Shown: one piece after another, positions 7,951 through 38,910 of the stretch
Layout of the letters: every line of letters begins with the position of its first letter
Position numbering within the stretch: the first letter of the stretch is position 1
Assembly (NCBI GenBank): GCA_002633005.1
Contig: NMRA01000581.1
Span: 96,762 to 160,761 of the forward strand
DNA length: 64,000 nucleotides
Source of the DNA: Phoronis australis
Lineage: Eukaryota > Animalia > Phoronida
Direction: 5' to 3'
The notes under the pieces: model-generated
Databases searched by the model: none
What the model was told of the DNA's origin: nothing
What the model saw: only the letters and a program-made list of their open reading frames with translations
Made by a program: the position numbers and the translations under genes

Positions 7951-8555
7951 TTATTTCCCTTTTTCGAGTTTCGTACTGGGCATGTAAACTAAAATAACCA
8001 GAGTGGACGCTGTGGCAGTCAATAGAAACAACCAGAACAACAGTCTATCCAACACGTATGCCACAAGTCTCCATTCGTTAGCGATATCTTCATGACGATC
8101 CTGGCAATCCTGTCGAGCAACCAGCAGTTGAAGATGTTTAGCAATTATGTCGACATTATCTCCCCTGCCTAACAGAAATCCCAGTTCCTTTCTGGGATAG
8201 TTTATTAGTTCTATGTTTTCGTCTGTTTTGATATGCATATGACCCTTTTCATGTTTACTGTACCCAACATTCGCGTCTTTGAGATCTCTTTGGTTTCCGT
8301 TCTCGTTTGCGTGATGCAAATTGTTGCTACTAGCCAGCGGTATGCTCTCCTCAACGACCGCGAAGTCTCGTTTTAGCATCTCGTCGTCTACGGACCTATG
8401 AACGCACAGTATTCTGGCAAGGAAGTCGAAGACCACCCGCCGAACCCACTTGGGAACTGGTCTTTGATGAGGAGTGGAGTGGTGCAGCTGCAGCACTGTC
8501 ACTGTCAACATTATGGAGAATGACGTCATCGCCATGGTGGTGGTCAAGTACAGGC
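7951..8555 (-). CDS. nAChR alpha9/10-like subunit, last exon (TM3, cytoplasmic loop, TM4)
   Basis: Acceptor tttccctag|GC, phase 1. Encodes (G)LYLTTTMAMTSFSIMLTVTVLQLHH...PVPKWVRRVVFDFLARIL...EWRLVAYVLDRLLFWLF...*, diagnostic nAChR motifs. Confidence 0.97.
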
Positions 8556-9399: not shown

Positions 9400-9754
9400 C
9401 TATAAGCGGCACGAACTCTGAGGTAGCAGGCATACTTTCAGCTATCAATAACATGAAGACAGAAAAGGCGAGAAGAACAGTGATTCCCAACGTGATCTTC
9501 TCACCAGAATCTGGTGGCAACCAGAAACACAGAAGACTAAGAACAGTGAGCCAGAGGCAAGGGAATATCACGTTGAACAAGTAGTAAAGCGTTTTCCTGC
9601 GGATACGGAGGATGAAGGTCACGTCTGGATAGGGTTCATCGCAACACGGGTACTTGACTTCGTTTCGTTCGACTACGATGTCTATAAGCTCCCATTCTCC
9701 CGAGAAGACGTAGTTGGAAAGATCGACTTCGTCAGATTTGCTGACCAGGTCTAC
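9400..9754 (-). CDS. nAChR exon 5 (loop F, loop C, TM1, TM2)
   Basis: Acceptor ctacag|GTA and donor ATAG|gtgagt, 355 nt. Encodes VDLVSKSDEVDLSNYVFSGEWELI...YPCCDEPYPDVTF...PPDSGEKITLGITVLLAFSVFMLLIAESMPATSEFVPLI. Vicinal CC marks an alpha subunit; the GEK motif indicates cation selectivity. Confidence 0.97.
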
Positions 9755-14001: not shown

Positions 14002-14182
14002 CTGAAATCCATCGTAAGTCCAACTGCCAAACTTCATTCGACATTCTTGATCATCAAAAGGAAAGTAGGTGATGTCAACTTTACACGAACTGCGTATTTT
14101 AGCTGGGGGTGGCCAAAACACGTTGCCTTGGTAATCTATCATTGCTTTGCTCTTCATGTAACCGCTAGTGAATTCATCAGCA
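14002..14182 (-). CDS. nAChR exon 4 (loop E, Cys-loop, loop B); absent from the ORF track
   Basis: Acceptor tattccag|T, 181 nt. Encodes (S)[60 protein letters not shown]; ends at the non-canonical donor CAG|gcacgt. Confidence 0.96.
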
Positions 14183-17712: not shown

Positions 17713-17867
17713 CTGTTGTAAAGCACTATATCCGGTAGCCATATCTTGTTGCACGGTACCCGCAGTTTCTTCAAGCCGTTGTAGTCGTCCGGGTTCCAAT
17801 GCAGTCTCTCGTCCACCCAGTCTTGTTCTAACCAGACATTTGTTGTCAAGATCTGATTGACCTCATC
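17713..17867 (-). CDS. nAChR exon 3 (beta2/loop D to loop A); absent from the ORF track
   Basis: Acceptor ttttttctccaag|GAT and donor ACAG|gtgacg, 155 nt, phase 0/2. Encodes [51 protein letters not shown](S). Confidence 0.97.
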
Positions 17868-20294
17868 CTTGGAGAAAAAACGGTGAATTAGCGGTGATAG
17901 AAACTTGTACAGTCAATGCCATCCACAAGCGATGTTTATAAATTTTTTTGTCGCCTTTCTATGAAATGACAGTAAAGCAGGAGCTGCGTTTCGTAGACCG
18001 CAAGATACAAGCTTGCACTTAAGGGGAAAATTTTCAGTTATGGAACGGAAATAGTACATTTAACCCCACAATTCAATATTGCAACCTCACCGACCAATCA
18101 GACTTCAGAGACCCCCAGTTTTCTAGAGTAGAGCTCCCAGACGAACTCGCAAAAACATTCGCGTGATTTTACGTGGTTTAGCGCGATCTTACTTTTCTAC
18201 GGAACACTCTCCTGCATAAATACGACCTCCATGGATCTTTGTTGTTTTGAACAAAGTTCCACTTCTAATATTGCGCACTCAGTATTCACATGCTTGAAAT
18301 TTCCCCTTACTTGGATAAAATATCTCAATGCCGGTGTACCCGACTCATGGCAGTTTTACCGAGCAACCTTCAACGGTAATTCAATGAGTTGCGCTCCCAA
18401 TAGCGAATGCAGTGCAAAGCAAAAATAGTTCCCTCGTATGCTCATTGTGAACAATGTAATAGTCACATACAAAGGCCCCGCAATTAGGATCACAAAGTGA
18501 AATGCATGTCTACACTACAGTACGTATAAAAAGTGAAACCTGAGATTGCGCTAATTGCAAGGTGGAATTAACGTCGATGGGAAAATTGCCTTCAACAAAT
18601 TCACTGAGCTTTGCAGGAATATGCTCACGTCATAGATAGTATAAAATATCACAGACAACGAATACGTAAATTATCAACCTGTAAAGTAAGCACTTCGAGA
18701 AGATATTGCTGTTACAACTTACAAATTGTGTTTTCTCAGATATAATAAACTCTAAATTGGTGTCGGTTCTGACATTATCGACCACAAGCCCAGCGCACAC
18801 GGTGCAATTTTTCGTGGCCCACAAAAAATCGTAGCGTGTCCACCCAGCTTTAAACAACAACATTGACAAACAGCGCATGCGATTGAGACACAACACGAAC
18901 ACTGACAAAGATCAATCAACACTGTACATGTAGCTATTATTTAAAAACATGAAAAGAATGTACACTTTGAAGTGAACAAAATGACACAGAACGAAAGGCT
19001 AGGACAGAATTAGGGTGTATAACTGTACTTTGATTTTTTCCCACAATCCCAACAACATAAGAGAATCATCATTCAGTGTAAGGCCGCGGATAATCGTGCT
19101 TTTGAGTAGGCCACGTCCGCATTCTCAGTGCGCACGTGATATTGTTCGAGAAAGAATGGGCGTCAAAACAGATCGTAAAGGAAGCAAAATTACGGCTTAA
19201 ATGTTTTATGTAGAATTCAAAACGCTAAAATTCGAGGTACTCAAAAACCAGAAAATTTACTCTAACGTATGAAAATTAGTAAACCGGAAAAGTAATCAAA
19301 GCATTTCGATCATAAAACTGACACCGTGCAACGAAGCAAATTCATTTTTGAAAAGATTTCAGTCATTAATTTTCTTGGAGCTGACTTTTCAGTAACGACT
19401 TCTGTCACAAGTGCCTTTATTTAGGCGTCTGTAACAGAAAAAAAACTAATTCGGTGACCCTACGTTTTCGCAGATTTGTAAGAAGCTAAGGCCAAAATAC
19501 AAAATATGAAATAAAAAATCAACGATAAATTAAATCTGTGTCGAACCCCATTAAATGTATCGGTATTGAAGTACACACCCAGTGACGCACTGATCACCTG
19601 TTGATTACTGTTGGTTTAAGAACTTATTCAGGCAGACTAGGCAAGCGACTTTTTGATTGCAATCTGTCTGGATTCCGCTGCGTGTAATGACATAATTAAA
19701 TCTGGCTATTATTGGGTGTAGCAGTAGAGTTAATATTTCGCAGATCCGCTTTCGCGGACAATAAGGTACTTGATTACACAGTGACAAAGAAACGTACTGT
19801 AATGTGAAGGGAAAAAAGCAACAATAAGGAAACGACTAAGGAAAAAATCGATTTTGAGCTCATCTTAACAAGCGACAGGGAGATTCGCCGTCTTTGTAAG
19901 AAAGGCTAGACTCGTATTAATGAAGCTCTTGCGCTGAAGTTGTCTTTGATTGCAGTAGCACTACGCCCACCGATAAATATGCGTGTTGCAACAATCACGC
20001 CAGTCTAAGTTGAACGACTTTTAGGCTTACGACCAATTCTGTGCATGCAATGAACACGGACAGGATTTCGTTTCGTGAAACGATCATTTAGCAAACGGAG
20101 ACTTGCAATATGCGAAGGTGACTGCTGATTTCTCTTTACGTGGCCTACGTCATTTTGATAATCATGACTCCCGGCCACGGAAAGTGATTGCTGAGACAGG
20201 GTTTAGGATTTGAAAGTGTACATTGTGAGGCGATTGTGACATGTTTAAACCAATATTTTCGAAATTGAGATTCATAACGCTAAATTGTCGTGAG

Positions 20295-20336
20295 AGACCG
20301 TCCGGAGTTGGTATATGGTGCAACTCCGGACGGTCT
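20295..20336. repeat. Perfect 16-bp inverted repeat with 10-nt loop
   Basis: agaccgtccggagttg-gtatatggtg-caactccggacggtct; a second 13-bp hairpin lies at 20453-20480. Confidence 0.85.
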
Positions 20337-23250: not shown

Positions 23251-23436
23251 AAAGAGTATAGATACCCCGGCAACTGTACTTGACACAGTTGAAAATAATC
23301 ATAGTTAAATAACTGTGTTCTCACACTAAATATTGTAGGCTGCAACAGACACCTTTGCTTCTCAACTACACGACAGCAAGACAGCTACAGTCACAGAACT
23401 CAAATGGTTAGTACGGATTGACGACCGGAGATGTAC

Positions 23437-23597
23437 CATGTCAATGATCGTTATTAACGCTAAGTTCAACACGATGACGGCGATGGCAGAAGAGTTAATG
23501 ACGGGTCTCGAGGCAGGTGTGTAACTGACGAACAGGTCTTCAAACAGCTTGTGCTCCTCTCCAACGAAGTTTTTTGACCGCGCTTTTCGAATGAAGG
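23437..23597 (-). CDS. nAChR alternative exon 2b (N-terminal helix, RPV motif, beta1)
   Basis: Acceptor ccattccaatgcag|CC and donor ATG|gtacat, 161 nt, phase 1/0, open frame. Encodes FIRKARSKNFVGEEHKLFEDLFVSYTPASRPVINSSAIAVIVLNLALITIIDM. Confidence 0.85.
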
Positions 23598-23941
23598 CTG
23601 CATTGGAATGGTAGTATGAAGAACGTACAATGACATATAATTGTAAGTCATGCAGATGGGCTTTTGTGCTGATCACTGCGATGTCGTGCCAGCACCGATT
23701 ACGTATACAAGTACGTCAGGCAGGTAAAATACGCGCGAGCATTGAATCGTACGCACGGACGTGTGCGTGGTCAGCACTAATCTCACCGCAAACCCTTTTG
23801 CGCGAACATAAACTGTCATCCGCGCAAGTATCGAATCGTCCGCGCCATGAATGTGGCTCGTATACATCTACATGTACATGTCAAGTCAGTAGTTCGTAAG
23901 AATGTTTGACCTTCATGCGTATGATTGCCTGGTACCCCTGT

Positions 23942-24038
23942 GTCACTTGCAGGGGGTCCCGCATTTTGAGAACCAGTTTCCTGTATTGAATAACAAACAT
24001 CAAACTGGTTATCAAAATGCGGGACCCTTTCAAGTGAC
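23942..24038. repeat. About 37-bp inverted repeat (hairpin or mini-MITE) between exons 2a and 2b
   Basis: gtcacttgcagggggtcccgcattttgagaaccagttt ... aaactggttatcaaaatgcgggaccctttcaagtgac. Confidence 0.85.
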
Positions 24039-24253
24039 TATATTTCGCTTGCGATAACTGAAAACTAGTAAAGAAACTTATGTGATGCGATTTGAGCAAA
24101 ACAAAATACGGGCTGTCCTATGTGATGTACACATTCCAATTTCATGGTAAGGAATTCGAGTAGAATTTTACAATCTCTAACTAGCCTTGGCGGAAGTGCA
24201 AAAATCATTTACAAATAAAAATCACGCTTATTTTGTAAATTCAATGTTGTTTT

Positions 24254-24385
24254 CAGTGGCGGACTTAAAGGGGGCCCTAAAATTCTCCCAGATTTCATTT
24301 GGCAGTGCGGGGGTGCGAATGTCTGAAGAGTAAAATCCTGGCTAATACTCTGCCCTGCCCCCTCAATATCCTGGATTCGCCCCTG
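24254..24385. mobile_element. CAGTGGCGGA-type MITE, same family as 49364-49522
   Basis: Ends cagtggcgga / gattcgcccctg; internal aaattctcccagatt...ggggtgcgaatgtctga...taatactctgccctg shared with the second copy. Confidence 0.75.
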
Positions 24386-25446
24386 AATCCAGTCCAGTTT
24401 ACTAAAGAAGATTCAATCCCTTTAATGCAATCATACGCCGTCTTGGTAATTGAGTATTGGATATTGAGTATTGGGTATCGAGTAAGTATCAGCCGATGGC
24501 TAATTTGTTTACAGTGCGAAAGTATCCGATGATAGATAAAATGTCCATCATTGGATTATTGAACATTCAGTCTCATAGTGTGAATTCACTTGTAACTTAA
24601 TAAGGTCAACCCTCTTTCGTAGAATAAGTCAAGAGGGACAAATCAAGCGAGTCTAAAAAATCAATATTGTCAATAATTAAGAGAAATGACCCAGTGCTAT
24701 TTATATCGGCGTAACAGTGCGTATTACAGGGCATGCTACTGTTGGTTTGTGTAATTTGTCAACCTATTATCAAGATTCATCGAGTTGTTAAACTCAATAG
24801 TGCCATAAAAATAATCCTGTCGGTGGGGAGCGAGGCTATAGTTTACTTAGTCCCCCTAGCCTCCTATGGTGCGCCGCCCATGTAATAATTAAATGTAGAT
24901 GGAATGCCCTATCAACAAAATCAATTCACTTTCATCCAGTCATTTCCCGTCGGGAAAGGTGCACCAAAATCACGAACAACATTTCGGGTATTTTCGTAGC
25001 CTCAAATTAATCCTCGGGGTGTTTCATATCTCAGTGCGCATGTGCGAACTTCAATCAGTCCATCTTAATTGTCACGTATCTCCCAAAATGGCCAAAGCCG
25101 TCGAATGCCCCAACGTCGCTAATGTTGACTGAATAATTATACGGTGGCCGGTTTGGTTTCAGCGTAGGTATTACGCTGAGAGACATCATACATGCTTGAT
25201 TTTTAAAAATGGACAATAAAGTGAAATTGAGTTCATCAAAAATTATTGAATTAACAAACTAGGATAGATTTTTATCTAAATAATTCATGCACATTCCGCT
25301 GGCCGCAATCGAATTAATGAAGACGAGATTTCCCGATCAAAATATACTCAACCGACTGGCACGACATCGCTACATTATGAAGGGTGGCCAAAGGAATCTG
25401 ACTCGTGGGAACCACAAAACTGACACCTGTCACATGGTTTACTTAC

Positions 25447-25652
25447 CATATCCGGTATCATGATGAGAGCGTAACCAAACGTGATGGTGACGTTGTCAGA
25501 AGCGTTGAGAACAGGGCGGGCGCTGGTGTCATAGTCGTTAAACAGAGTAAACATTAGGCGTTGTTCGTCGGATAAGTTTTTACCGCCGTTTATGGGCGGT
25601 TTTTCTGAATAAATGCCCTGTTTTGAACCACCCTTGCGAGAAATGGCTGCAG
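25447..25652 (-). CDS. nAChR alternative exon 2a (N-terminal helix, RPV motif, beta1)
   Basis: Acceptor tttattgcttctttag|CT and donor ATG|gtaagt, 206 nt, phase 1/0. Encodes AAISRKGGSKQGIYSEKPPINGGKNLSDEQRLMFTLFNDYDTSARPVLNASDNVTITFGYALIMIPDM. Confidence 0.93.
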
Positions 25653-26336: not shown

Positions 26337-26427
26337 CGTCGTGAGACGAGTTGTATTTGAGCGACGACACACACTCGTTGAGAAGAGCGCAAACCAGAGC
26401 GGCCATGATAACAATTTTTCCCGGCAT
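26337..26427 (-). CDS. nAChR first coding exon (signal peptide)
   Basis: ATG at 26427 gives MPGKIVIMAALVCALLNECVSSLKYNSSHD, then phase-1 donor G|gtaagt compatible with both 2a and 2b. An upstream acceptor catcttttacag (exon start 26445) implies a further non-coding exon. Confidence 0.85.
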
Positions 26428-29400
26428 TATCTCACCGTGATGACACTGTAAAAGATGCAAAGCACCCTTTTTCATTTCAGCAGCATATTTTGCAAATCAA
26501 TTCCCGTTCAATCAAAACTTGGCAAACCAAGACCGTTAAACGGACCAGAGAAGACGGAGAGCTACGCGCCTCGAACGCAAATGAGCTCAGCGGCAACAAC
26601 AACCGTGATGACTTTGCCTCGCGAGGGGTGCAGCGAATGTTTCACTTTCTCTCACGTCACCAGAGTAAATCGTCACAGCATGCGGGCGAGATGATATGAG
26701 CTAAGTGCTTTGCCGAATACAACTGATAACTAACTAAAATTAATTATTGCATCGCCTGACAACAAATTTCTCAGAGTCGTTCATTGTGTACTTTATTTGT
26801 GCTGTTTACTACAAACGCAGATTTCATGTCACCGAGCATAACCATGGACAAATCCGTTACATCTGCTAAAAAGACATCAAAATCTGGTGATTAAGTGACA
26901 CCTGGCGAGACTTCTGTGGCGTCACAAAAATGACGTAGTTCTTGTAGTGTCTGATACATTTCGCAACTGAGATCTTATGCTGCTAAGTTTTGTGACCTAT
27001 TAACCTATAATAAGATAAAAAGCAACAGTCAGTAAATGTACTAAAAATAACAAATGGAAATCGATGAAAATTACGTGTCACCGATGGACCGTAATATTAC
27101 TGTATCGCTGAATTTATGGCAAACGCTCAAAGATGCCTTTTTGAAAATTTAAAGGGTAACCAGGGCGATATTTCTTAAAATGTGGATAAAATGCCAACGA
27201 GAGTGATGATTACTATGGTAAGCGCACATTTCTAAGGCAAGAATGCGCGTACGTGTCTCGGAAGTGTGACTACGTCTTGGACAACAGACGTACGTTCCGT
27301 AGTCACTAACCATTCACAATAGAACTGGTGGAATCACGTTCTTTGCTTGCAATGCATGGCGATGTTTCGCAGACTTGTCTGGTTTTGGCTTTTCGTGAAG
27401 TTTTGCGTGTACGAAATGCAGCCCAGGGAAGTTAACACACACGTGATAAACATCGTAGGCGATCGAACTATCGTGTTAAAGCGTAAAACCTGTTTACATA
27501 ATCAACAAATTTCCTGTAACATTGTTGATCAACATGAAAAGTGGTACTCTCTCAACGACGCTCCACTGTGTAAACTACTCCGTTAAGGTTATGTACCACC
27601 TTACCGGCACGTCTGTTTAGCCAAATATCTACAAAATAATAGAATTTAACTCAGAGAGAGTATTCTGAAAGTGCAAAGTGTTTAGAATGTGACATATTCC
27701 AATCTGCAAGTATTTGGGTCACGTGGCCATACATTTTTAGTAAAATTTAGTAAAAACAATCATAAAAGACTCGCAACTGAGCAGTTTCCCATGGGTGTGT
27801 CTTCTGTGCCAACTAGCATGCGAGCTTCATATATTGGATCTTTCAACAGGAATAAGCGTGCGGTGAGGGTCACGTGTACGCCGTTGTTTTGCGTTGAAAC
27901 CTCAAACCCCAAACACTTTAGTTGCCAGTCTTTCCATTTTAGCGATGAGGGTCCCAGGTTGCGGCTGCCCATTGGATAACTCCAAACGCTGGTGGGGGGT
28001 CACGCGATCCCTGATCCCTCCCTAGTTGCGCCCCATTGATTTAGGCAAGTGTCAATCCCATTACGGACAGGATAAAAAGCTGTTTCTATAGGTCTAAGTG
28101 GAACATTTTTCATTCCAAAATTGTGATAGGTTCCTCTCTTAAAATGATACAAACCCCTGTTTTGACCTAATAACAGATATTAAAAACATCTTATATATCC
28201 AATTCCCTGAGACAAAATAATGCTCTGTAACCCATCGACAACCCTCAAAAGTGTGGAGGACATTTTGAAAACTCTTTTCAAAATCTGGTAAACAGGCAAG
28301 CGTGACCTACGGTTTTAAGGAATTACACGGCAACTGTGTGGAAAAACACCAACGAAGAACCTTTAGTTTTTAACCTCGGACACAAGGAGTATGATTTTTT
28401 AGCTGATTCTTGCTTTTATTGTTTAGTATTGGCGCCGATGGTGCATTAGCCGGTGACAGCACGAGGATTGGCTTAAATCATCAAAACAAGGTTTAGTATC
28501 CTTAGAAAGTGCGCCAATTACTGCAGTTAAATTGTTGCATATAGAAAGGAAAGCTTAGGCAGCATGTTCTGGATCAGCCAACCGAAGATGTCTAGGCCAT
28601 GTGACGGTACACGATAAGCAAAATGTCAGTCTTAGTGGGTGAAGAATACACCAGACGTGCATGAATATGAGGAAAGCATATCTCCGGAAGCGTTTGAATG
28701 GCATTTTGAGAATGCCTCAATTGTCATTTGATTCTAAATCTAGAGAAATGGCTCGGCTTGTTAACATAAAATGCAGCGAATTTGATGATATAAATCAGAG
28801 GAAGGTGTAAAGTGTACCTTTCATGCATCGATCCCAGGAACCGGGCGGCTCCGCAACGCTGGAAAAATTAGTTTACAGTAAGTTCCAGAAGTTGTGATTT
28901 GTATTTCTTCGTATTTTCATATCATCTTCGACACTTGATATTTTTCAGTCATGATCTTATAGAGACACCCATCTTCAAGAAATATCGGCATTTCAGTTGC
29001 CTCACTGAACGCTGTTTTCTGCTCTAGTCAGTGATATTCAATATAAAAACAAAACAGTTGATTGAACTGTCGCAGTTAAAAAACGTTCCTGCTCATGTGA
29101 CGTAATTACCTAAGGTACCCTCATATACCGTCGTCTTCGTAGTCTCGGTCAATGACACTGTTAAAATTCACTCGTTTGAGTTTCTATTGAAGCTCTAAAG
29201 TCGACACCGAGATCGGCTTAATATTAACAAATTTGCGTATTCAATCAAGTATCCACAACTTTATAGATTTTATCTCCGTAAAGGTGTATTTTTATGAAAT
29301 CGGGAAAAATATGGAATTCAGTTTTGACTTTTTACTAAAATTTAGCAAAACGAAGGCATCAAGAACATTTTTTATGTTCCGTCATACGAACGTGGGGCCT

Positions 29401-31092: not shown

Positions 31093-32132
31093 TTTACTGT
31101 ACAATTTGTAATCATTATAGCTATGTTAATAATACCCCCTTCCGTTCAGTGACGCTAGGATCTCACAGAAAAAGCAATACTTTGCGAGATTACGTGAGAT
31201 ACTGTCATGTATTTAAATGAGAACACATAACTTAAGCTAGATTTTCACTGGACGCACGCCAGGGCTGCTCAATTTGAAAAATTAAAAAAAGAATTATCAA
31301 GTTTATTAAAATAAAGTACATTGAGGATGTATGAGCTGTTGGAAAATAAATTTGTGCGCCAAACTACCAGTGTTATGCTACAAAAATTAAAAACACAGTA
31401 TGAGTTTGTACATTTTAAAACTGGCCCGTATACATGCATGATACCAGGACTGAAAGAAAATGAGCGTAGACTTGAGAATCGGGAATTCTGGAAGTTTCAG
31501 CAAAAACGAAAATCAAAAGGCCGGCTTTTACTCTTATAAAATAGGTCTCATAATATTTCAGACCACAATAGAATTCTATTTCCGTTACCAAGAAGAACAT
31601 CAAAACCATCAGTNTTACTGAACAATTTGTAATCATTACAGCTATGTTAATAACACCTCCTTCTGTTCAGTGACGCTAGGATCTGGCAGAAAAAGCAATA
31701 CTTTGCGAGATTACGTGAGATATTGTTATGTATTTAAATGAGAACACATAACTTTGGCTAGATTTTCACTGAACGCACGCCAGGGCTGCTCAATTTGAAA
31801 AATTAAAAAAGAATTATCAAGTTTATTAAAATAAAGTACGTTGAGGATGTATGAGCTGTTGGAAAATAAATTTGTGCGCCAAACTACCAGTGTTATGCTA
31901 CAAAAATTAAAAACACAGTATGAGTTTGTACATTTTAAAACTGGCCCGTATACATGCATGATACCAGGACTGAAAGAAAATGAGCGTAGACTTGAGAATC
32001 GGGAATTTTGGAAGTTTCAGCAAAAACGAAAATCAAAAGGCCGGCTTTTACTCTTATAAAATAGGTCTCATAATATTTCAGACCACAATAGAATTCTATT
32101 TCCGTTACCAAGAAGAACATCAAAACCATCAG
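31093..32132. repeat. Near-identical ~520-bp tandem duplication joined at an N, probably an assembly or haplotype artefact
   Basis: 31093-31613 and 31615-32132 differ by a few substitutions, and the junction coincides with the n at 31614. Confidence 0.8.
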
Positions 32133-35100
32133 CGACTCGAAAAAGACGCTCCAGAGTTCATTGGAATTGCCCAACCACAAAAAATAGCGAATTCGAAAAT
32201 GGTGCACGTACTTTAGTTGGTAACGGAAATGGAATTCTATCACGGTAAGGAATACTATGAAACCGATTTTACGATAGCATAAGGACAATTCAATTTTTGT
32301 TCTTTAGCCAGTTAAAGAGGGCGAAATGCCGCTTTAAAAACGTCATTTCACGTGCGAAGACAAATCACGAAAAGAAGCGCGTGAATCTGTGAGAGGTGCA
32401 AACAAACGGGCATTGCGACAGTGAAATGTGTGAGCTGCGATAACGACCCATTCCTGTCAACAGGTGTGAGGCGCAGTGCTGTAAGTTATAAGATTTGCAA
32501 GAGATCATCAATGCTTGAAGAATTATATGTAACTATGCCTCTTTAGTATAATTTTTTGTTAGAAACTGTATATTAGGCATATGTCCTTAGTCAGGCCTGC
32601 TAGAAACAAAAATAGACTAGTTGACTGTTCTACTAAACATCTTAATTTTTTGCGTAATTTTGGGTTGCCGTTCACTGAGCAAGCTGCAGCCACAGGGTTG
32701 AATAATTCGGTGGTGTCAGGTGTTGGCGGCCGAGAGACTTTCGGCAACGATAAAACTTCCACCTGCTATACTCCTGTCCCCAGTATTCGAAAAATTCCAT
32801 CACCGGAGTGAAACTAAAGAATTTTTACAATGGGACAAGCATTTATGTAAAATAATTTTCTGATAATTCAAACAGACTTACATTTTCAAATCGTCAACGT
32901 ATCGGGTTAGATTAACACTTCTTTGTTTATTGTAGTTATTTAACTACGCTAAATGTTAACCTTCGTAAATTTTCAAAAAGAACAATGTGAAGTAATAACT
33001 TTATTCTTCTTAACTACCTTAAGAGATTCTTCACACTTGTATTAAAAATGTTTTTATATGCCAAAAGTGTGAGTTAGTTGAGAGGACTGCATATATCGAT
33101 CTACCATTTTCAAGTTGTTCGATTTTCAATGCTTTTGGAAAACCAAAACATCTATTTTTCCCACTGTTTGGGTAGGTATGAAAAAATACAGAGAATATTT
33201 ACGGTAGTCCGTGGCCGAGGGTAAATCCCTTTTCCAAACAACGAAGTATTCCTAAAATATTGCTAAGTATTGTTTTGGTGATTCCAATTTATCCTCGTAA
33301 TGTCTTACATCTTTACCAGTCGTGTGAGAAGAGCACGATTTTACTAAAAAACACGTACTGCCTGTGTCACACAATGTTTATCATGGTTCTTGTTGAGAGG
33401 TCTTTGCCCACAGTCACGTGTAACTCACCTACAACGTTTGTCGCCCTTGTCAGTTAAGCAGACTTTGAAACGAGTTTCAAAATTTGTTCCAAGCGTTTCA
33501 TGGCAGACGAAAGGTACTGAACATTTGTTGAACATTTGTTTTAGAGAGCTGGATGAGAAAGTCACTGTTAATATCTGTTTATAGGCAAAAACCGGGTATA
33601 GTATCTTAAAGCTGTTTTAATACGTCAAAAAGAGATTTTGTCCAATGGCATTTGTTCGAGGGTAAATCGAAAATGTTTTACTAGTAACGGATGTAACATT
33701 AACTGCGAGAGTTCCAGTTATATCGTCTGAGGTTTTCTCATGTAGAGTTTCGATCTACCGACGAGCTTATAGTCATGATCGTTCGACACTAGTTTCATGT
33801 AATTACATGTATTTCAAATTTACGAATGTTCAATTTTGATGCAGTCAACGAAATTTATTAAAAACGTCATAGTAGCGTCATCATGAGCAGCTGGTCGCCT
33901 TTTTAAACCTCTAGTGCAGAGACACAACTGCTCATTACAAAAACTCGACAACAGCGGTTTCCATCTCGAAGCTAAATCCTCGAAATAATCTAGCTTCGCA
34001 TAGGCCTCCAGATTGGACTCGGCTTCGTGTAAGTCAAAAATACAGCTAAGTTCCTGTATTGATTTCCTTATTTGCAAAGTCACGTGAGTTGACAGGCGCG
34101 ATAGGTGTCCTTAAGTAAACACCGTTTGTTACTGCTGTTTGTCATGCGCAATACGACTGTTAAATACAACTGTTAAAGAACTGGAAGTAAAGAAGTCATG
34201 ATTATTTATACTGCCAGAGAAGAAATGTGCGTTGTTACACCTTATTTCATTTTCTTGCTCAGATCATTCATGAGTTTCCGTATCGGCATAAATGAGCGTC
34301 TCAGGTTATGTACGCTCAACAGTGCACTTCAAAGTTATGTCCTGATGGGCTGGGCCTCGGACGAATACTTCCTCGAAATATAGCGATACAACACTGTTTT
34401 CAAATCACGAATTTCAGAACAGCTGGCATTTTAGCGAAACTCAATGACCGCAATATTGTTACCGGTTCATATCCGCGCTGGAGCTGATTTCAGCAAATCG
34501 GATTTCTCACGGATAATGACACTTTTAGGTCAACGCGCCTACACGTGAAACACTTCAGTAAAAATGTCGTTGAAAAACGCATTATTTCGGAAATTGGCAC
34601 CTGGGCGTAAACATGTCCACGGTGTAATTCAAACCTCTGAAATGAGCTTCGTTAAGTGTAAACGCAGTGAGTCTGTTACAGGTGCATAAAGCTCAACACT
34701 GCTTTATACTTGTACAGCCTGGTGAGTAGGAACCAATTAAGTAGTCCTTCACTGAACAATAAACTCTAAACTTGATGATTTGTCATTATTACCGTCTATC
34801 TACCATAAATGGATCGTTTGATGTCTGTTTAACAAGATTAAGCTGAAGATACATTCACACCAAGACAACAAACCAAACAATTTCTTTTGATGCAAATGTT
34901 AAACACGTACTCTGTCAAACACTAGGTAATAGTTTACTAAATTATAGTTTTGTTTTCGTTTTACACCAGTTTTGAGTTCTCTCACGTAAGTCCTAAAAGC
35001 CCTCATCCAAAAAGGACACGTCATCTCAAAACTGATTTCGGAAAACAGCACATAAGTACAGTATCTAAAAACTTCAGTCAATCTGATCAGTCATTTCTGA

Positions 35101-38637: not shown

Positions 38638-38910
38638 TTGTACGAAGAGAAAATCCGGAGAAATCTGAACGTTTGTCGCTTCAAAATGACTCCTTGGTCA
38701 TACTCCAGTGAAGACGATACTCATGCTAAAACAATCTCCTACATCGTATTTCGTCTTCATTGTAAAATCTCCTCCGTCCAAATAACATTGGTCTAAGACT
38801 GAACACACGGCAAATAGAGAGATCCAACCACACATGCGCATTGGCAACGTCAAGCAGATGGGTGTTATTAAGAGCGACGTGAAGTCCGCTGAGCTAAACA
38901 TTGACTGCGG
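38638..38910 (-). other. Candidate non-coding 5' exon of the nAChR gene
   Basis: Ends in the strong donor ACAA|gtaagtgagt on the correct strand, 12 kb upstream of the orphan acceptor at 26446. 5' boundary unknown. Confidence 0.35.

Follow-up and report, generated by a model that had tools for sequence, protein, structure and literature searches.

In FGFR2, the two arms of an RNA stem are both located between two alternative exons, IIIb and IIIc. By its title, a 2003 paper by Mistry reportedly deals with the same splicing unit in FGFR genes of sea urchin and human, and an invertebrate case of an FGFR2-type unit may on that account already be in print. RBFOX RNA bridges are known from ENAH and KIF21A, where they act on cassette exons. 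In the FGFR2 unit as it has been described, the stem is formed by IAS2 and ISAR, and Fox proteins act through GCAUG motifs found downstream of ISAR as well as inside exon IIIc (PMC2471395). Tandemly duplicated exons combined with long-range intronic pairing are described for the docking/selector systems of Dscam1, 14-3-3zeta, Mhc, srp and ATE1 (PMC6071210, PMC11802352). In C. elegans, 11 of 29 exon clusters are reported to carry UGCAUG, the STAR protein ASD-2 to bind downstream of the second exon, as in let-2, and the intervening introns of egl-15 and let-2 to be too short to splice (PMC4165533). Earlier publications already cover duplicated exons with long-range stems, RBFOX bridges, and invertebrate exon pairs under RBFOX control. 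The literature that we found on structure-guided choice between duplicated exons concerned arthropods and vertebrates in the titles and abstract openings searched, and among these there was no paper on structure-guided exon choice in a lophotrochozoan nicotinic receptor.

The locus described here lies in a 64,000-nt stretch of DNA (the window) and comprises two alternative versions of the second exon of a nicotinic receptor gene, 2a and 2b, and two complementary arms, A and B, in the intron between them. As in FGFR2 IIIb/IIIc, there are two intronic arms with a GCAUG just past the second one, and the expected outcome would be the upstream exon on and the downstream exon off. The initial annotation had likened the locus to FGFR2, and the layout described there, in which a GCAUG follows the downstream one of the stem arms (PMC2471395), does recur here, with the motif at 23654-23649, 24 nt past arm B. 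Unlike FGFR2, the gene and the phylum are unrelated, the stem is a predicted one, and the receptor gene has a single UGCAUG in the vicinity of 2b, with none in the exon itself. The ENAH and KIF21A bridges are similar in that a UGCAUG far from an exon is brought close to it by a long-range stem (PMC10790352, PMC7404189), but the bridged motif here also sits at the likely branch point of the rival exon. With the docking/selector systems the locus has in common its duplicated exons, its intronic pairing and, downstream of the exon cluster, a candidate for a second partner (C); unlike them, its strong pair lies wholly in the intervening intron and loops out no exon, and the signs of competition are faint. 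The exon pairs of C. elegans unc-32 (7a/7b), egl-15 (5B/5A) and let-2 (9/10) are likewise invertebrate and under RBFOX or STAR control, and in let-2 ASD-2 acts from a position matching that of a UACUAAC found past the 2b donor, whereas no RNA stem is described for these pairs in the portion of the source available (PMC4165533). Mutually exclusive duplicated exons in a nicotinic subunit are described for insect alpha6 (3a/3b and 8a/8b/8c; PMC1919356), although subunit class and exon differ, the exon duplicated here being the N-terminal helix exon of an alpha9/10-like subunit. If the stem works, the locus would be a clean case of convergence with FGFR2 in a third animal group.

The receptor gene and its two second exons

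Exons 2a and 2b belong to a minus-strand nicotinic acetylcholine receptor (nAChR) gene of the lophotrochozoan alpha9/10-like type. Its exons matched PF02931 and PF02932 (ligand-binding and membrane domains) and the vicinal cysteines are present, as in alpha9/10-like nAChRs. E5 was 84-85% identical to proteins of Tubulanus, Owenia and Lineus (named alpha-10-like or unnamed) and about 80% identical to mollusc proteins, and many of its matched relatives carry the name alpha-10-like. The exons are the following:

38638..38740, minus strand: E0, an apparently non-coding 5' exon, about 100 nt in reads
26337..26445, minus strand: E1, signal peptide from the ATG at 26427, phase-1 donor (exon scans; RNA depth in 3/3 raw-read runs)
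25447..25652, minus strand: exon 2a, 206 nt, phase 1 to 0, strong splice sites (PF02931 E 0.0011; RNA depth in 3/3 runs; 3 reads joining 2a to E3 in run X7)
23437..23597, minus strand: exon 2b, 161 nt, phase 1 to 0, an intact but divergent duplicate with a weak donor, ATG/GTACAT (tblastn identity to 2a 39.5%; HMM E 1.7e-9)
17713..17867, minus strand: E3, the first downstream exon in common (similarity and RNA)
14002..14182, minus strand: E4 (Cys loop); a GC donor is predicted after it (X8 contig at 14001-14142)
9400..9754, minus strand: E5 (loop C with vicinal cysteines, M1 and M2; similarity and domains)
7951..8555, minus strand: coding part of E6 (M3, loop and M4; similarity and domains)

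E0 was located from the loose end of 3 reads at 26450 (run X7) and ends at the donor CAA/GTAAGT; the 100 nt or so given for it are the part covered by reads. E1 was the sole phase-1 signal-peptide exon found from 62600 to 23598 in a scan upstream of 2b, and window scans of that region revealed no separate first exon for 2b. Since no second signal-peptide exon was found in the window, E1 appears to be common to 2a and 2b. Several other features of the gene and its surroundings were recorded. The intron after E4 apparently opens with GC (CAG/GCACGT, 14001-13996, minus strand), a non-canonical donor. An upstream reading frame with a short hydrophobic stretch lies in or before E0 (about 38900-38700, minus strand); it stops before the E0 donor and shares its frame with the E1 start codon. 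A neighbouring transporter gene is indicated by a 351-codon open frame (63726-62674, minus strand) with a match to MFS_1 (E 8e-7), and at 31272-32303 there are near-identical tandem copies about 520 nt apart with N between them, possibly an assembly artefact.

Exon 2a encodes the N-terminal helix and the first strand of the ligand-binding domain, and the choice between 2a and 2b swaps this part of the receptor. Both exons have a length of 3n+2, intact frames and intact splice sites; because each runs from phase 1 to phase 0, a transcript containing both or neither is shifted in frame, and the frames permit only one of the two per protein. Over 43 codons the exons differed by a dN of 0.68 and a dS of 2.46, with synonymous sites near saturation, and by these divergences the duplication is an old one. 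The excess of dS over dN also shows that 2b has been kept open under selection. The proposal of the initial annotation that 2a and 2b are alternative exons was therefore well founded, as they form a real, old and frame-exclusive pair. Exon 2b is the more divergent copy (37-39% identity to orthologs vs 50-53% for 2a), and the 64,000-nt window contained no third copy of exon 2. Its splice sites are also the weaker ones, with a donor score of -0.8 vs 5.8 for 2a and a pyrimidine tract of 17/25 vs 21/25, and these values could account for skipping of 2b without any RNA structure, which weakens the case for a role of the stem in 2b silence.

RNA data came from three raw-read runs of one study, tissue not given, with about 18-19% of each run covered. 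All three runs cover E1 and 2a on the strand of the gene, and in run X7 3 reads join 2a to E3 and another 3 join E0 to E1. The depth of the 2b bin was 0.01, 0.02 and 0.05 in the three runs, vs 0.17, 1.67 and 1.44 for the 2a bin; summed over the runs in gene orientation, the bins reached 3.28 (2a) and 0.08 (2b). The first read mapping, crowded by repeats, gave no splice joint among the 15 of 67 joints listed, and the second listed no joint between E1 and 2a at a threshold of 3 reads. We infer this joint from X8 contig 8 by depth arithmetic, its 90 unplaced bases at depth 8.52 corresponding exactly to the 1.15 seen in the 2a bin. No read joining E1 to 2b and no spliced 2b were seen in the three runs, whose low depth leaves room for a minor share of 2b. 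The only isoform observed in RNA is thus 2a, and the switch itself was not observed.

Isoform listings from 10 ortholog clusters revealed two versions of the exon-2 region in Owenia, Lineus, Lingula, Patella, Octopus, Haliotis, Mytilus and Biomphalaria, and one version in the gene models of Tubulanus and Mya. In the gene models of all 8 genera with both forms, each version carries its own signal peptide, which suggests alternative first exons in these orthologs and not a cassette. That orthologs across Lophotrochozoa also keep two versions suggests a long-lived reason for having both. Exon 2a leans to the long ortholog type (67.2 vs 61.3 bits) and 2b fits the long and short types alike (37.3 vs 36.7 bits), under an assignment that was correct for 22 of 25 sequences in leave-one-out tests and with a tree that was mostly unresolved. 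Exon 2b may descend from the other ancient module or be a newer copy of 2a. A metagenome scan seeded with E3, which may miss distant orthologous loci, confirmed 89 of 244 stretches and kept 80; none of these 80 loci had two exon-2 copies, 24 had one exon-2-like match, and the best E3 identity over the whole length was 69%. Protein searches gave no match to 2a at E 0.001 among 733 candidates, and 6 matches to E6 among 2,256, none of them a close relative. The gene models of Nucella and Octopus vulgaris (P0020, P0127) string both exon-2 versions together, which places the short type upstream of the long type in these molluscs; the order differs in the window, where the long-like 2a comes first.

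Complementary arms at the ends of the intron between 2a and 2b

Both arms lie within the intron that separates 2a from 2b:

25344..25370, minus strand: arm A, perfect core 25356-25370 with an extension to 25344; the core is the exact complement of that of arm B
23678..23706, minus strand: arm B, perfect core 23678-23692 with an extension to 23706; pair probabilities 0.78-1.0 in the whole-intron fold

The geometry reported in the initial annotation was reproduced in full: the 15-nt core at 25356-25370 is the exact reverse complement of the one at 23678-23692, and 1663 nt separate the two. Arm A begins 76 nt past the 2a donor, and from the end of arm B it is 80 nt to the 2b acceptor. Extended inward, the helix reaches 26 pairs, including 3 G-U, and is interrupted by a 2-nt bulge and a 1x1 loop; pairing was stronger on the sense strand (-42.4 kcal/mol) than on the antisense (-32.7). 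The extension by G-U pairs and a bulge, which had been noticed before, is real but not significant, as 6-19% of control flanks matched it (586 and 289 of 5,000 controls when flanks of 15 nt were used; 967 and 744 of 5,000 for flanks of 20 nt). When the entire 1.9-kb intron was folded, each of the 15 core pairs had a probability of at least 0.99, and formation of the stem in the RNA is, according to this prediction, likely.

A perfect match of at least 15 nt between the first and last 150 nt of the intron appeared in 1 of 20,000 shuffles, and in 6 of 40,000 real pairs from the window, including the A:B pair itself. We also devised a compact-helix score (based on approximate Turner energies and allowing loops of up to 2 nt), which was -45.4 for the 2a-2b intron vs -15.0 to -27.6 for the other 6 introns of the gene, a value reached by 5 of 1,500 real pairs. 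By the shuffles and by this score, the complementarity of the arms is far beyond chance for this intron, as had been claimed.

The strongest competitor of a functional stem is that the complementarity does nothing, being a chance match, the remnant of an old single-copy inversion or a decayed transposon, and that the choice between the exons is governed by splice-site strength, protein factors and nonsense-mediated decay. A perfect match of at least 15 nt anywhere in the intron, hairpins included, was found in 11 of 3,000 shuffled introns, and the real window held 3 perfect inverted repeats of this length with loops of 200-3000 nt vs 0.13 expected from shuffles, so the window's repeats raise the background of long inverted repeats above that of shuffles. 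A selection effect should also be considered, since among a very large number of scanned windows some 1-in-10,000 events will turn up. The insignificant extension and the sufficiency of the weak 2b sites for skipping favour the same reading. It nevertheless has to accommodate arms placed at both ends of the one intron separating the duplicated exons, a GC-rich perfect core, and a UGCAUG beside both arms; furthermore, a tandem duplication gives direct and not inverted repeats, and this duplication is near synonymous saturation. We regard a functionless complementarity as rather unlikely.

The transposon variant was explored separately. The 15-mer of the arms did not recur in the window even when up to 3 mismatches were allowed, and the flanks, read by eye, shared no direct repeat of 2-9 nt, in agreement with the earlier remark that no target-site duplication is visible. 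The initial annotation had also raised the possibility that the arms are terminal inverted repeats of a multicopy transposon; arm A turned out to be single-copy, with one contig and a flat depth of 9.6 in DNA run X1 at 85% likeness, when nearby repeats reached 62-110 (X1 may be the source sample of the window assembly, and its depth bears on copy number, not on conservation). DNA copy number was measured for arm A; in the arm B bin the RNA depth was at most 0.05, while repeats reached 5-100. As arm A is single-copy and no target-site duplication was found, the arms are, as far as tested, unlikely to be transposon ends. Taking the three functional readings considered here jointly, we hold it quite probable from the sequence that the stem has been selected.

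RBFOX-type motifs and the predicted preference for exon 2a

Four short motifs are relevant to the possible action of the stem:

25286..25291, minus strand: UGCAUG 1, an RBFOX-type motif, in the stem loop, 155 nt past the 2a donor
23649..23654, minus strand: UGCAUG 2, 24 nt beyond arm B, beside branch-point candidates and in an AG-free zone
20044..20049, minus strand: UGCAUG 3, 30 nt upstream of candidate arm C
23407..23413, minus strand: UACUAAC, a candidate STAR/QKI site (ACUAAC), 24 nt past the 2b donor; the minus strand of the 64 kb carries 4 copies in all

The reading favoured here is an FGFR2-like bridge, with arms that sit, beyond chance, at both ends of the intron between the duplicated exons. 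The stem, probably together with an RBFOX-type protein, would favour 2a and keep 2b silent by default, a proposal drawn from the sequence to which we give about an even chance; with that standing, it is the single most likely mechanism. Pairing of the arms would loop out 1.66 kb and leave about 100 nt between UGCAUG 2 and the 2a donor. A protein of the RBFOX type bound at this motif would then lie downstream of 2a, an activating position, and beside the 2b branch point, a repressing one; this step is the conjectural part of the mechanism. A transcript that carried 2a and 2b together, or had neither, would lose the reading frame and would probably be degraded by nonsense-mediated decay. Exon 2b would be turned on in an unsampled tissue or stage, perhaps via a STAR/QKI protein at the UACUAAC after its weak donor. 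ACUAAC is given as the QKI motif in PMC7404189, and if UACUAAC is a STAR site, 2b is predicted to be switched on in STAR-rich tissue such as muscle.

The positions of the two intronic TGCATG motifs first reported, 25291-25286 and 23654-23649 on the minus strand, were correct. Both arms have a TGCATG within 60 nt, vs 3.6% of window positions. A TGCATG also precedes the acceptor of the unduplicated exon E4, by about 20 nt (14206-14201). UGCAUG 2 had been placed over the 2b branch point; it does overlap a candidate A at 23648, but a better candidate A is found at 23644, 5 nt beyond the motif. Two functions previously attributed to the stem did not survive. It was said to occlude the 2b branch point, yet it ends 30-34 nt short of the candidates at 23648 and 23644 and thus cannot cover them, so that any repression of 2b would come from a protein bound to UGCAUG. 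It was also said to supply 2a with an RBFOX site, but 2a already has its own UGCAUG 155 nt downstream and needs no bridge to get one. In the whole-intron fold both UGCAUG 1 and UGCAUG 2 are mostly paired, and RBFOX binding would be hindered as a result. In a local hairpin predicted at 23655-23625 (minus strand), UGCAUG 2 is paired and the second branch-point candidate stays for the most part out of the helix.

A candidate third arm and a cryptic splice unit

A further sequence complementary to arm A lies downstream of 2b:

19987..20014, minus strand: candidate arm C, second partner of arm A; 26 pairs, 8 of them G-U, -30.4 kcal/mol; pairing would loop out 2b

Its presence raises the alternative of a switch by competing pairings, in which A would pair either with C, looping out 2b and giving the 2a isoform, or with B, freeing 2b, following the docking/selector logic of Dscam, 14-3-3zeta and ATE1. 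Competing pairs are called the major mechanism for such exons in PMC6071210. Over both window strands, C was the best compact partner of A after B (-33.1, the next being -32.2 and -31.9); it draws on those bases of A that also pair with B, the antisense pairing is weaker (-24.0 vs -30.4), and C has its own UGCAUG 30 nt away. Its compact score was reached in 22 of 1,000 shuffles, but this score was chosen after seeing the hit, and by duplex energy (duplexfold) C is ordinary, being equalled in 41 of 300 shuffles, with three unrelated window sites as good or better; at p 0.02-0.14, arm C is not significant alone. In addition, A:B is about 12 kcal/mol stronger than A:C and B is transcribed first, and yet 2a dominates, when the model needs A:C to win. 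We consider such a switch distinctly unlikely. Arm B had no strong alternative partner, as 714 of 1,000 shuffles matched its best helix after 2b. A 7-mer at 23375, a part copy of arm A just after 2b, was considered as a rival partner for B and rejected on the same count (714 of 1,000 shuffles equal).

A composite of these ideas would be a three-arm switch in which A toggles between B and C, with an RBFOX motif for each arm and an opposing STAR motif. It would have evolved when an ancient choice of whole N-terminal modules, each with a signal peptide of its own in molluscs, annelids, nemerteans and brachiopods, was rebuilt in this lineage so that a single first exon is shared and the choice falls on a cassette. 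This scenario is improbable at present; if true, it would join the FGFR2 bridge and the competition logic of Dscam in one spiralian receptor gene.

Finally, the stem might be selected but only shorten the intron or quiet a cryptic splice unit in its loop, with no role in the choice between 2a and 2b, a very unlikely reading for which it may be said that the loop contains, 80 nt from arm B, the sole strong donor of the intron (score 4.3 at 23786), that a branch-like sequence and an AG precede it to delimit an 81-nt candidate exon (23867-23787, minus strand) and that loop-outs of splice sites are known (PMC10790352), but no reads show the candidate exon, an open frame of 27 codons is common by chance (it is open in two frames, by eye), and the UGCAUG positions are left unexplained. 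Short hairpin-type and other dispersed repeats with high read depth are also present in the introns (23954-24027, 24275-24362 and 20295-20336), some of them in the stem loop.
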